DNA of 64,000 nucleotides from a virus. Taxonomy: Duplodnaviria > Caudoviricetes. The DNA lies in the IMG/VR virus record IMGVR_UViG_3300034126_000020, positions 1 through 64,000 of that record. One strand, given 5' to 3'. Shown piece after piece: positions 3,466 to 36,826 of this stretch. Under the pieces are notes generated by a model. The model made no database searches, was not told the origin of the DNA, and saw only the letters and a program-made list of their open reading frames with translations. A program made the position numbers and the translations under genes. How positions within the stretch are numbered: the stretch's first letter is position 1; each line of letters opens with the position of its first letter.

Positions 3466-5118
3466 TTAAACGCGTTGAATAAGACGTTGTACACCGTCTA
3501 GGACTGGTTGGTGCTCGGGACTTGGCACGGTAGTGCGTGTCTCCGGGTCAAGCTTCACACATGGGTTAAACCGGTTGTTGCCAATCGGTGTCGACTTGGG
3601 CAACACACCAAAGCCGGTGACTTCGGCAAAGGACGAGTCCAAGTACATGGTGGGGCCAATAGGCTTGGCATCCTGGGACTTCCCACGACCGTGTGTATCG
3701 GTCTGCTGGACGATCACCGAGGTGACCTTGAAGAACATGTTGTCGCTCGGGTTGGATACCGAACTGACTTCGGGATGCTCAGCTGCTGAGCTGATGCCAT
3801 GAATCAGCCAAGGGTTGAAATACTTGCGCAGGATGTCCTCGTACTCTTTCGGTTGGAGAACCTTCTTGCTGTTGCCGGTGATCTTGAACAAGAACTCGAA
3901 CATGCTGTTGTTGATGTTACGAAGCAGATAACGCAGAACTTCCAGACGCTTGTTGTACAAGCTGGCTTCTTTGCCCCGGTTGTTCTCCAGCATCGTGCGC
4001 ATTTCTCGCATGATGTGGGCCATCAGATCGTACAGATCCTTACAGTTCACCTGGACCTCTTGCAAGGTCTTGACCGTCTCTTGGTCGACATAACTGTCGA
4101 GAGACTTGAGGTGAGTTTCGACATCCTCTACCAGACGACCGTAGTTGTTACCTTCACCCCACTGGATGAACGCCATGAAGACGCACCACCACCAGGTCTC
4201 TTCCAACTCGGAAGGTTCGGTCACGAACTCTGGGAAGTGGTCGATAACGTAGAAGAAGCCCGCAGCGAAAGACTTCGTCATGTCAGTCCACGCACCCCGG
4301 TCCACCAGCATGATCAGCTGAGTGGCAATGTTGTGGTAGCCTGACTTACGCCGTGGGTTGATCCCATCGGGTTCTTTGCCGTGAGACGAGACCACAACCC
4401 AATGCTCCGAAGGGAACTTGGCTTCGTCGTAGTCTTCTTTCTTCATGATGATTGGGCGTGTGCCGCAATACTTCTCGAACGCCCCGTACATCCCGTACTT
4501 GCAGAACAGGTAGTGAGCCAACGAAGATTGCACGTGACCCAAGCGAATCAGCTCGGAACGGTTGCGCGACTTCTTGCCACCCTTGTTGTGCAGTTGCGAG
4601 TAGACCACATCAGCCTTCTCACGAGTGCCGTCAATGACGATCGTGTGGCTTTCACGGTTGAACGAGATCGGCGCCCGAGGAATCCGGATGAACACACTGT
4701 TCTCATCGATCTCAAACGCTCTATCCCCCATCACCGGCGCCACAGCGAACTGCTTGCCAGAGATGTAGAGCATACCGGCCTGGTGAACAAACGGCAGGTA
4801 CATGTACATCGGGTGTAACTCTTTACCGTGCAACGAGAACCGATACTTAACCAAAAACACTGAGCTGCGCGCAATGTCGTAGATCCGGTTGTTCCCAGCC
4901 CGAGCACGGGTAATTACGTTGTACTCCTCCAATGGATTACAACGCTCACTCGTAATGAACACAAATCCCTCGGGATACTGCTTTTCCCCGCAACGGATGA
5001 TGCTCTCTACATAACGCTGAGCACCTGGAACATCCTTGCAAGCAATCCCTTTCACCACATCCTGATTGAAGACAGGTGCACGCTTGCGGTGTGAGAACTC
5101 GTGTAGTTTGTCGTCCAT
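3466..5118 (-). CDS. Non-virion RNA polymerase beta-like subunit, N-terminal part (phiKZ gp123-like)
   Basis: 550 aa; C-terminal SFAEVTGFGVLPKSTPIGNNRFNP resembles the beta fork-loop region; synteny downstream of the major capsid gene as in phiKZ. Confidence 0.75.
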   Translation of the reverse strand: MDDKLHEFSHRKRAPVFNQDVVKGIACKDVPGAQRYVESIIRCGEKQYPEGFVFITSERCNPLEEYNVITRARAGNNRIYDIARSSVFLVKYRFSLHGKELHPMYMYLPFVHQAGMLYISGKQFAVAPVMGDRAFEIDENSVFIRIPRAPISFNRESHTIVIDGTREKADVVYSQLHNKGGKKSRNRSELIRLGHVQSSLAHYLFCKYGMYGAFEKYCGTRPIIMKKEDYDEAKFPSEHWVVVSSHGKEPDGINPRRKSGYHNIATQLIMLVDRGAWTDMTKSFAAGFFYVIDHFPEFVTEPSELEETWWWCVFMAFIQWGEGNNYGRLVEDVETHLKSLDSYVDQETVKTLQEVQVNCKDLYDLMAHIMREMRTMLENNRGKEASLYNKRLEVLRYLLRNINNSMFEFLFKITGNSKKVLQPKEYEDILRKYFNPWLIHGISSAAEHPEVSSVSNPSDNMFFKVTSVIVQQTDTHGRGKSQDAKPIGPTMYLDSSFAEVTGFGVLPKSTPIGNNRFNPCVKLDPETRTTVPSPEHQPVLDGVQRLIQRV

Positions 5119-33741: not shown

Positions 33742-34113
33742 TTACTCGGCGCAGGTGTCGAGGAAGTTGATGACCAGTGCGGCCACCAATGCAGCAGGGG
33801 TAACGCCCATGCGGGCAGCTTCTTTGATCAGGACTTCTTTCTGCGCTTTGGTGATCTTGCCACCCAGCGATTCAGAACGAGTCAAGCCGCCTTTGGCGAA
33901 GCCTTCGAAGATCTTGGCCAGACGAGCTGGGATCTTGTAGACCTTCTTGGCGGGGATTGCGGTCTTCTTGATACCGTCAGCAGGCGCTACCTTGGCTTTC
34001 GGTTTAGCCTGAGCGGCAGGAGGAACGCTGATCGAAGCAACGCGCGCCTTCTTGGCAGCAGGTTTGGCGGCTGGTTTCTTCTTTGCTGGTTTGGTTTCGT
34101 CGATAACGGCCAT
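33742..34113 (-). CDS. Lys/Ala/Pro-rich (histone H1/AlgP-like) DNA-binding protein with a possible C-terminal RHH
   Basis: KPAKKKPAAKPAAKKA repeats; C-terminal ITKAQKEVLIKEAARMGVTPAALVAALV. Confidence 0.6.
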   Translation of the reverse strand: MAVIDETKPAKKKPAAKPAAKKARVASISVPPAAQAKPKAKVAPADGIKKTAIPAKKVYKIPARLAKIFEGFAKGGLTRSESLGGKITKAQKEVLIKEAARMGVTPAALVAALVINFLDTCAE

Positions 34114-35147: not shown

Positions 35148-35210
35148 GGTGTAAGGCCTTAGCTAGTTCTACACCATCTCATCACTTTTTCTTTATTAAC
35201 GGTGAACCTC

Positions 35211-35678
35211 ATGTCCCACCTGTACCATGGATCTGGCTACAAGCACCCGGAGCTTAAACCCGGCATCATGCACTCTGGTGAATTGCAGCAGTGGGACAAG
35301 ACCGAATCCAACGAGTACCTCTACGCCACCACGTTGATGGAAGAAGCCATTGCTCAGGGGCTGGCTTCAGTCATTGAGAAGCACTGGAACCTTGCTCGGT
35401 ACCAGTCGGCTGGCGATAGCATCACAGTCATCGTAGACGGGCCTCTGCCTACCCTCAGAGAGCTTCAAGCCCTCACGGTGTATCTGTATCGCATTCACTG
35501 GGACAAAGCCACCTGGGTCCTTGTAGACAACCTGCACAACGGGATGTCCAACGAGTACAAGACCAAGCAAGTCATCGGCCCCAAGATGATCGAAAGCTGT
35601 GAAGCAGTGAACTTGAGTGACTGGCTCAAAGGCAAGAAGATCGAGATCAAAGCCAAGTCAGCGTCGATGCGTTGGTAA
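35211..35678 (+). CDS. Hypothetical protein with an ADP-ribosyltransferase-like HGS...YxT signature
   Basis: LYHGS..ELKPG..YLYATT..VYLYRI; lone + gene within a minus-strand run. Confidence 0.55.
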   Translation: MSHLYHGSGYKHPELKPGIMHSGELQQWDKTESNEYLYATTLMEEAIAQGLASVIEKHWNLARYQSAGDSITVIVDGPLPTLRELQALTVYLYRIHWDKATWVLVDNLHNGMSNEYKTKQVIGPKMIESCEAVNLSDWLKGKKIEIKAKSASMRW

Positions 35679-35700
35679 CAAAGAAAAAAAGGATGGTAAA

Positions 35701-35733
35701 GACTGGGGACCCGAAGGTCCCCAGTCTATTCCG
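35701..35733. terminator. Bidirectional hairpin terminator
   Basis: GACTGGGGACC-CGAA-GGTCCCCAGTC followed by TATTCCG; A-tract upstream. Confidence 0.85.
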
Positions 35734-36102
35734 TTACGACATCAGCCAGATCGGCTTGATGTCTTTGAGTGGATATGCATCACCGTCAACAACGATCATG
35801 ACAGTGTCCGTTGAATCGCCCGAGTAGGTGACACCTTGGATAGACCCCATCCCAGCGGGAGTCTTGACCAACATGCCAACCGACGGGTTCCACATGACGC
35901 CTTCGCCATCGAACTCCACTGTGCCACCTTCAGCGTCCGGACTGGCCAGACTCTTCTCTAAGCGAGCGATGATCTCGCTGTTCATTGAGCGGTGGCTGCC
36001 ACGGGCCACTTCTGCGATACGTTCACGCATGCCATCAGGCAGACGGACAACGAACTTATCGGCAGTACGGCTGGAGTAGATTGCTTGTTTCAAAGGACGC
36101 AT
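35734..36102 (-). CDS. amrZ: AmrZ/AlgZ-like Arc-family ribbon-helix-helix regulator with a non-host C-terminal domain
   Basis: [52 protein letters not shown] matches my recollection of Pseudomonas AmrZ residues ~1-52 almost exactly. Confidence 0.88.
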
Positions 36103-36172
36103 GGTAAAGCCTCTTGCAAGTGGGACCCTAGAGTCCCGGGTTATGGTGGTGAAGTGCCATTATGGCGATGTA

Positions 36173-36826
36173 TCAACGACCGGTCAAGAAGTTCTTCGCT
36201 TGCTCGTGACTCAGGTTAACCAACCCCTTGCCATTGAAGCGACTACCCGAAGTACTGATCCCGGTGAACTCGTCTCCGCCCATGTGCAGCACGGCAGAGA
36301 CGTTGGACTTGGTCACGTGCAGAATCCCATCAACGCCATCCACGCGGCATTTATGGTACCCACGAGCCAAGTCACCATTGCGAGTCTCGAAGTCCTTCGA
36401 AGACATCTCGACGACTTCAGGACGGCGCAATTTGCTTTCGAACGAACTCCAGAACATCGGAGTCTGATCGGGTTGTACTGGAGTGGTCACCACCCGAGGA
36501 CGGGAGATGCTCACGACCTTTTCACCATGTACACCTTCGAGTACCTCGACGATGGCTGGTGGTACTTCTGCATGGAGGATGTCTTGAACGACGCTCTCCA
36601 TGCTTGGTGCTGGTTCTTGCACTTCGGTTTCCATGACCACCACCTCAACTTCTTGAGTGGTCACGGTTTGCAGGCGAGCGCGCAGAATAGCTTTACGCTC
36701 TTCCATTTGCTCAGCAGTGAGTTTGTCACCGCCAGTACGACCCTTGAGAGTCTTCCAGCCCAGACCGCCTACCAGAGCAGCGGCTACAGCACCAACACCT
36801 ACGATTACGGCTACTTGCTTTTCCAT
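36173..36826 (-). CDS. N-terminally membrane-anchored hypothetical protein
   Basis: VAVIVGVGAVAAALVGGLGW TM segment; AAGGAG SD. Confidence 0.7.
   Translation of the reverse strand: MEKQVAVIVGVGAVAAALVGGLGWKTLKGRTGGDKLTAEQMEERKAILRARLQTVTTQEVEVVVMETEVQEPAPSMESVVQDILHAEVPPAIVEVLEGVHGEKVVSISRPRVVTTPVQPDQTPMFWSSFESKLRRPEVVEMSSKDFETRNGDLARGYHKCRVDGVDGILHVTKSNVSAVLHMGGDEFTGISTSGSRFNGKGLVNLSHEQAKNFLTGR

Follow-up and report, generated by a model that had tools for sequence, protein, structure and literature searches.

A regulator of a Noxifer-like jumbo phage that couples an AmrZ-type ribbon-helix-helix head to a predicted Tudor/SH3-like barrel

The ribbon-helix-helix (RHH) regulator AmrZ (AlgZ) controls motility, exopolysaccharides, c-di-GMP, and type VI secretion (T6SS) in Pseudomonas, and CRISPR-Cas in P. 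aeruginosa; its C-terminal tail is reportedly needed for both tetramerization and function, as Xu et al. are said to have found in 2016. RHH proteins of phages have long been typified by Arc and Mnt, which regulate phage genes. That phages also mimic AmrZ is an idea published as early as 2019. Borges et al. (bioRxiv 10.1101/673095) described AmrZ homologues on 14 Pseudomonas phages and plasmids, for which they used the term 'hijacked' genes; five of the six homologues tested, including that of phage PaBG, complemented a PA14 ΔamrZ mutant, and those of PaBG, phi3, and JBD68 repressed the expression of Csy (type I-F CRISPR-Cas). A 2026 study (PMC13650114) characterized Gp53 of the 94,085-bp phage PhiPA1019, an early 126-aa RHH protein with 78 DAP-seq sites, which bound the fleQ, pslA, amrZ, and ftsZ promoters in EMSA and depended on R15, R21, M35, and N36 for DNA binding (PMC13650114). 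Its overexpression resulted in filamentation with reduced motility and biofilm, phenotypes that differ from those of AmrZ overexpression (PMC13650114).

Here we analyze a related gene in a 64-kb stretch of phage DNA (hereinafter the window), which opens a phage genome of 276,810 bp bearing direct terminal repeats. The ribonucleotide reductase of this phage is 84% identical to that of pPa_SNUABM_DT01 and 78% identical to that of Noxifer, both Pseudomonas jumbo phages, and the source is accordingly a Noxifer-like jumbo phage of ~277 kb. A reading of the window made from its letters alone (the sequence-only reading) had proposed a Pseudomonas host, and this agrees with the hosts of the relatives: Noxifer infects P. 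fluorescens SBW25 and pPa_SNUABM_DT01 infects P. aeruginosa, so that the host is very probably a Pseudomonas and likely a strain of the fluorescens group. The whole record of pPa_SNUABM_DT01 (MW735835.1), which by ribonucleotide reductase is the nearest relative in culture, has no homologue of the AmrZ-like gene, which marks the gene as accessory or dispensable in this group of phages.

The regulator gene (P0001) occupies positions 35734..36102 on the minus strand and, by the open reading frame list and its translation, encodes a 122-aa protein with an ATG start (stop codon included in the coordinates). The product divides into three parts, all encoded on the minus strand: residues 1-52 (35947..36102) form an AmrZ-type RHH head with an N-terminal arm, a recognition strand (RTADKFVVR, 36043-36069), helix A, and helix B; residues 53-69 (35896..35946) are an acidic, poorly conserved linker, modeled with pLDDT <60 and variable in length and sequence across an alignment of 54 relatives; and residues 70-122 (35737..35895) form a predicted SH3/Tudor-like β-barrel with a W-x-P-x-x-G-x-L-V motif near its start and D-I-K-P near its end.

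We examined the DNA flanking the gene for expression signals. A sigma-70-like promoter, TTGACC-17-CATAAT (36159..36187, minus strand), is predicted directly upstream, where it shares bases with the stop codon of the preceding gene; it matches the consensus at 10 of 12 positions and is the sole site recovered by a consensus scan of 3.5 kb, a yield no greater than expected by chance for that length and hence without statistical enrichment. This predicted promoter is kept in the related loci L006 and L009, and not in L007 or L008. Between the upstream gene, which encodes a 217-aa protein, and the regulator gene lies a short leader hairpin or palindrome, GGGAC...GUCCC (36122..36137, minus strand), whose pairing is preserved by compensatory changes in L007 and L008 (GCGGC...GCCGC); its predicted fold is no more stable than those of shuffled sequences (fold energy z 0.3). 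A ribosome-binding site, AAGAGG (36110..36115, minus strand), is situated 7 nt before the ATG and is kept in all five aligned relatives. After the stop codon, a 12-bp GC-rich hairpin with a UUCG loop is followed by a U-rich stretch (35700..35727, minus strand); its fold energy of −27.7 kcal/mol corresponds to z −5.9, with none of 200 shuffles as good, and a simple terminator scan had missed it because the U run is interrupted. The hairpin likely functions as a bidirectional terminator shared with the convergent gene at 35202-35678 on the plus strand. As judged from these signals, the predicted promoter, the ribosome-binding site, and the strong terminator make the regulator gene a self-contained unit, and we infer that it is expressed early from a host-type promoter.

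The convergent gene encodes a 158-aa protein that matches PHROG 13483 (function unknown; E 2e-33) and no Pfam family, and it is syntenic in loci L006-L011. Further along, positions 33742-34113 on the minus strand code for a 123-aa protein without a Pfam or PHROG match; its N-terminal half is rich in lysine, alanine, and proline, and its C-terminal stretch resembles, by eye, another small helical DNA-binding module.

The affinity of the N-terminal head was established through profile and sequence searches. The Pfam Arc profile (PF03869) matches residues 11-55 with 74.7 bits against a cutoff of 20.4, placing the head in the Arc/MetJ RHH superfamily. A sequence search of solved structures ranks P. 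aeruginosa AmrZ first (3QOQ; E 8.7e-22 over residues 1-55, with one 2-residue gap), and the alignment takes in both the N-terminal arm and the RTADKFVVR strand. Against an AmrZ of the fluorescens/putida type (P0070, 108 aa), the ungapped alignment shows 51 of 59 residues identical, with 49 of 52 (94%) in the RHH itself, and beyond about residue 59 the resemblance is lost. The two proteins do not differ in the N-terminal arm or at the K/V/R positions: K16, V18, and R20 of the phage protein correspond to K18, V20, and R22 of AmrZ, which have a documented role in DNA binding, and the N-terminus of helix B (M-N-S-E) is identical too. The residues equivalent to those essential for DNA binding in Gp53, namely R20, R26, M40, and N41, are invariant in the alignment of 54 relatives. 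The sequence-only reading had recognized an AmrZ-like RHH in residues 1-52, the recognition strand included, and these comparisons confirm it. The contrary outcome, in which the closest homologues would be generic phage Arc repressors, was also checked: in the PDB search Arc and Mnt match far more weakly than AmrZ (Mnt, E 0.06; the pArc entry 1u9p, E 0.015). The profile of the ICE conjugation regulator TprA (NCBIfam NF052309) likewise scores only 42.1 bits against a cutoff of 150. Judged by its sequence, then, the head is AmrZ-specific rather than generically Arc-like.

The same searches bear on the reading of the protein as a plasmid-type partition or antitoxin RHH protein, either ParG-like or antitoxin-like, which we regard as very improbable. 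Related PHROGs and JGI names do read 'partition protein ATPase' or 'plasmid stability protein', and the Pfam scan returned a FitA-like RHH match that is weak and below the cutoff (E 0.006). However, these labels are transferred from generic RHH similarity, and the specific best match is AmrZ. Moreover, no ParA-like or toxin gene adjoins the locus, its neighbors being ORFans without Pfam matches, and the gene has its own predicted promoter and terminator. Both the partition and the antitoxin versions were rejected because partner genes are missing beside the regulator gene.

The helical C-terminal tetramerization domain of AmrZ is not present in the phage protein: the alignment stops at residue 59 and the tail is predicted to be all-β. 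When folded alone with AlphaFold2, using the 54-sequence alignment, the tail yields a barrel of five to six strands (pLDDT 83) with a 3-10 turn before the last strand. The nearest solved folds are Tudor, KOW, NdhS, and R67 DHFR; the best VIA Z score is 6.0 (6if4, 7dm4, 6hq9), short of the level of 8 that the tool takes as confident, with an rmsd of 1.7 Å over 48 residues, and the matches overall show an rmsd of 1.2-2 Å over 44-50 residues, scores in a range that is common for unrelated barrels. A shape search of the ESM Atlas recovered the PcrA/UvrD Tudor domain (TM 0.58/0.76). With the barrel as query, Foldseek searches against the PDB, the AFDB clusters, and BFVD gave best E-values of only 0.03 or more; a Pfam scan of all 54 barrels recovered no family at E <0.005, and a feature search of a protein atlas returned nothing. 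Only W71, P73, and P117 are invariant among the barrels of the 54 relatives. The structural scores are modest and favor a Tudor/SH3-like fold class for residues 70-122 but no specific family, and in this the model agrees with the sequence-only reading, which had placed an SH3/Tudor-like barrel where AmrZ has its helical tail. Described domains of the same fold class include the C-terminal Tudor of PcrA/UvrD, the RNA polymerase-interacting domains of CarD and Mfd, KOW, and R67 DHFR, none of which has sequence similarity to residues 70-122. Since the structural scores lie in the range of unrelated barrels and there is neither sequence similarity nor a Pfam match, we draw no functional conclusion from the fold.

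The two-domain architecture defines a family. PHROG 38161 ('Arc-like transcriptional regulator') covers both domains, with residues 9-118 aligning to positions 4-122 of the 137 in the profile (E 3.5e-26). Full-length relatives recovered by tblastn include those of Noxifer (50% identity), PaBG (45% over residues 9-118; one record annotates it as 'alginate and motility regulator'), the 93-kb Samunavirus group of SM1, PaMx31, and PA_L9 (about 40%), and EL (31%). A large protein collection yielded about 50 further metagenomic two-domain relatives of 119-174 aa, mostly on contigs of 250-277 kb; the family alignment (A1) comprises 54 full-length relatives. SM1 gp115 is homologous in both domains (BLAST E 2e-23, 37% identity over 115 residues), and its tail is matched by the barrel profile with an hhalign probability of 97.3% (E 1.8e-11); the tails of PaBG, Noxifer, and EL are matched weakly (PaBG, hhalign E 5e-3). 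At 126 aa, SM1 gp115 has R15, R21, M35, and N36 at exactly the positions reported for Gp53. From the protein length, the residue numbering, and the 94-kb genome, we infer that Gp53 is the Samunavirus (SM1 gp115-type) member of this family. Judged through SM1 gp115 as a proxy for Gp53, the window protein shares with it both an RHH head carrying the essential residues and a homologous barrel. Likewise, as in the mobile-element homologues that Borges et al. recognized by perfectly conserved DNA-contacting residues, K16, V18, R20, and the N-terminus of helix B are all retained. The protein is thus a further member of a published family of phage AmrZ look-alikes. No partner gene is conserved across distant members, and synteny is seen only within the Noxifer-like clade.

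A search of 1.84 billion representatives with the barrel profile recovered about 30 small proteins matched in a single stretch, nearly all of which combine an RHH with the barrel and whose heads range from generic RHH to AmrZ-identical. The top matches by score were long WD40-repeat proteins, in which 5-11 weak stretches are summed; we judged these to be spurious, arising from the 'W-x-P..G..L/V' strand motif.

Several variants of the architecture were encountered along the way. One subfamily of 159-174 aa, on contigs of about 264-268 kb (P0030, P0038, P0042, P0047, P0048, P0053, P0104, P0107, and positions 4001-4525 of L012), follows the AmrZ head and barrel with a third, helical-looking C-terminal module ending in ...H-[KRT]-A-L-E-R-I-A.... 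Four IMG/VR contigs of 76-228 kb (L036-L039, match at 4001-4309) encode instead an AmrZ-like protein of 103 aa in which the helical C-terminal tail of the host type is retained, and its neighboring genes match only phage PHROGs of unknown function; it thus seems that some phages have AmrZ in full and not the chimera with the barrel. Separately, about twenty short 'viral' contigs (L015-L035; IMG/VR UViGs of ~11-22 kb, one of 50 kb) terminate precisely at a host-type amrZ of 107-108 aa. Such ends point to predicted prophages or islands that border on amrZ in several Pseudomonas genomes, and an integration hotspot adjoining amrZ is possible.

We next consider how the resemblance to AmrZ arose. 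At the DNA level, the 52 head codons are 69-77% identical to those of 85 host amrZ genes, against an amino acid identity of 94%, and synonymous sites relative to host amrZ are saturated (pS at least 0.78); among related phage copies, none exceeds 0.83 DNA identity. The sequence-only reading had spoken of a captured domain; in the sense of a recent transfer this does not hold, and recent capture from a host was rejected, because the best head DNA identity among the 85 host genes is 0.77 with synonymous differences at saturation. Phage head and AmrZ resemble each other only as proteins, and this likeness is old and maintained by selection, the head being under purifying selection with an omega of 0.08-0.21. 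Host AmrZ heads are even more constrained than the phage head (pN 0-0.025). A tree of 61 RHH heads (56 columns) is an unresolved star, which gives no signal on the direction or number of transfers.

The two domains have different evolutionary tempos. Across the 54 relatives, mean identity to the window protein is 88% for the head and 43% for the barrel (down to 19%), a contrast that is partly one of ascertainment, as the word-based search favors conserved heads and the barrel-based search shows diverged heads too. The barrel evolves much faster than the head. L009 is the nearest locus for the DNA upstream of the gene and for its first 30-50 codons (0.90-1.00 identity), whereas L006 is nearest for the barrel and for the genes downstream, with a barrel pS of 0.11 versus 0.60 for L009; at the protein level, the barrel encoded in L009 shares only about 30% identity, against 72-79% for the flanking genes. 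A recombination breakpoint therefore lies at the head/barrel junction, and the conserved head-coding DNA may provide a patch of homology for the exchange of barrels.

An alternative to host targeting is that the protein is an Arc/Mnt-type phage-internal repressor acting on phage promoters, its own included (for instance, in early-gene shut-off), with the likeness to AmrZ reflecting shared ancestry alone. The classical phage RHH proteins Arc and Mnt act in this manner, and the RHH-barrel proteins with generic, non-AmrZ heads indicate that the architecture is older than the mimicry. The DNA upstream of the gene also offers a candidate operator, as read from the sequence: a perfect 11-bp palindrome, GCCAT-A-ATGGC (36156..36166, minus strand), overlaps the predicted −10 element and is kept in the window, L006, and L009, so that autoregulation through it is possible. 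However, it is absent from L007 and L008, both of which have the regulator gene, and the order of its half-sites (GCC-N5-GGC) is the reverse of that in the amrZ1 operator (GGC-N5-GCC), which renders its labeling as an AmrZ operator speculative. We also scanned for amrZ1-type operators, as GGC and GCC separated by an A/T-rich 5 bp, and found no enrichment either in the 277-kb phage genome (12 observed versus 8.9 ± 2.9 expected) or in the 64-kb window (2 versus 1.1 expected). As AmrZ operators are degenerate, this only weakly favors host over phage targets. In addition, synonymous sites are saturated while 52 residues remain nearly identical to AmrZ, a combination that is difficult to account for unless selection has favored a match to some host feature. 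On balance, we consider a phage-internal repressor unlikely.

Our preferred reading, to which we assign a probability of about 0.72, is that the protein is a phage transcription factor whose AmrZ-type head mediates dimerization and recognizes, on the host chromosome, GGC half-sites of the AmrZ type, so that genes under AmrZ control are reprogrammed. With virtually all residues of AmrZ retained in it, the K/V/R strand that reads DNA among them, the head would be expected to dimerize and to recognize GGC-type half-sites. Its targets in the host would be the promoters of fleQ, exopolysaccharide genes, genes for c-di-GMP enzymes, and T6SS genes, along with CRISPR-Cas where the host has it, and occupancy of these AmrZ sites would reprogram host transcription during infection. 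The sequence-only reading had proposed such an occupation of AmrZ sites, and members of the family lend it support by analogy: the PaBG homologue complements ΔamrZ and Gp53 binds the fleQ, pslA, and amrZ promoters. Binding to AmrZ targets and complementation of ΔamrZ are activities of these homologues, which are 37-45% identical overall to the window protein, and by extension the latter would have the same activity. As regards the barrel, AmrZ needs its own tail and yet the PaBG homologue complements ΔamrZ; by this analogy the barrel probably gives an alternative mode of assembly or a partner contact, and in our scheme such higher-order assembly or contact would make for stable operator occupancy.

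The strength of the head's resemblance to AmrZ raises a different prospect, namely that AmrZ is poisoned rather than replaced. In such a dominant-negative scenario, which the sequence-only reading had also raised, chains of phage and host origin would fold together into mixed RHH dimers with one helical tail and one barrel; these could not tetramerize properly, and AmrZ would be inactivated. The dimer-forming head, at 94% identity to host AmrZ, is closer than DNA binding alone seems to need, given that Gp53 binds AmrZ targets while the head of Gp53/SM1 gp115 is only 46% identical to AmrZ. The reported need of AmrZ for its tail and the different overexpression phenotypes of Gp53 and AmrZ fit such poisoning as well. 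However, the PaBG homologue, in complementing ΔamrZ, acts as an AmrZ substitute where host AmrZ is lacking, which argues against poisoning as the sole mode, and Gp53 binds DNA alone in vitro. Further, given how constrained the host heads themselves are, the conservation may just reflect a small, tightly packed domain. We accordingly hold the dominant-negative scenario to be doubtful.

A more tentative elaboration, of low probability in our estimate, takes the barrel to be an exchangeable adaptor and not simply a device for oligomerization. The Tudor-like domains of PcrA/UvrD, CarD, and Mfd dock RNA polymerase. By extension, a near-invariant head that reads AmrZ operators could be recombined, with the junction as the homology patch, with rapidly diversifying Tudor-like barrels, each docking a different partner, such as RNA polymerase or host AmrZ itself. 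If so, an arms race would have shaped the phage protein into a poison or super-repressor fitted to particular hosts.

Under the preferred reading of a transcription factor acting on host AmrZ sites, a phage copy of the DNA-reading head of AmrZ would give the phage direct influence over the host's surface receptors, biofilm, and immunity. The idea of such influence is already established for P. aeruginosa phages; the present locus extends AmrZ mimicry to Noxifer-like jumbo phages of environmental pseudomonads, in which the head reproduces that of the host protein almost perfectly. Neither Borges et al. nor the Gp53 paper discusses the conserved Tudor/SH3-like barrel that stands in place of the tetramerization tail, and knowledge of its role would explain how the mimics work without the tail that AmrZ needs. 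What remains of interest in the system is the barrel with its rapid evolution, the junction at which recombination took place, and the occurrence of AmrZ mimicry in environmental jumbo phages.

Set against the known systems, the window protein shares the Arc-type RHH fold and Pfam family with P22 Arc and Mnt, to which its sequence similarity is weak; Mnt, too, has an extra C-terminal module after the RHH, but this is a coiled coil and not a barrel. With host AmrZ it shares the arm and the RHH head, and differs in bearing the barrel in place of the helical tetramerization tail; further, AmrZ is encoded by a chromosomal core gene of Pseudomonas, whereas the window gene is phage-borne and its DNA has diverged from host amrZ to the extent given above. 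It is therefore not an AmrZ orthologue. PaBG gp184 is a phage-borne AmrZ-like RHH protein and a full-length relative with the same W-x-P ... R-P layout in its tail, although its head is much less close to host AmrZ than is that of the window protein; the phi3 relative shares the head only. The homologues studied by Borges et al. originate from elements of P. aeruginosa, and the assay applied to them was one of CRISPR-Cas repression, whereas the likely host of the present phage belongs to the fluorescens group. Gp53/SM1 gp115 has the same two-domain architecture with a homologous barrel, but comes from a 94-kb siphovirus and has a head less close to AmrZ (46% versus 94% identity); the repression of ftsZ and the filamentation are phenotypes of Gp53. 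Relative to this published work, what is new here is the match to AmrZ at the protein level only, the fast evolution of the barrel, and the breakpoint at the junction of head and barrel.
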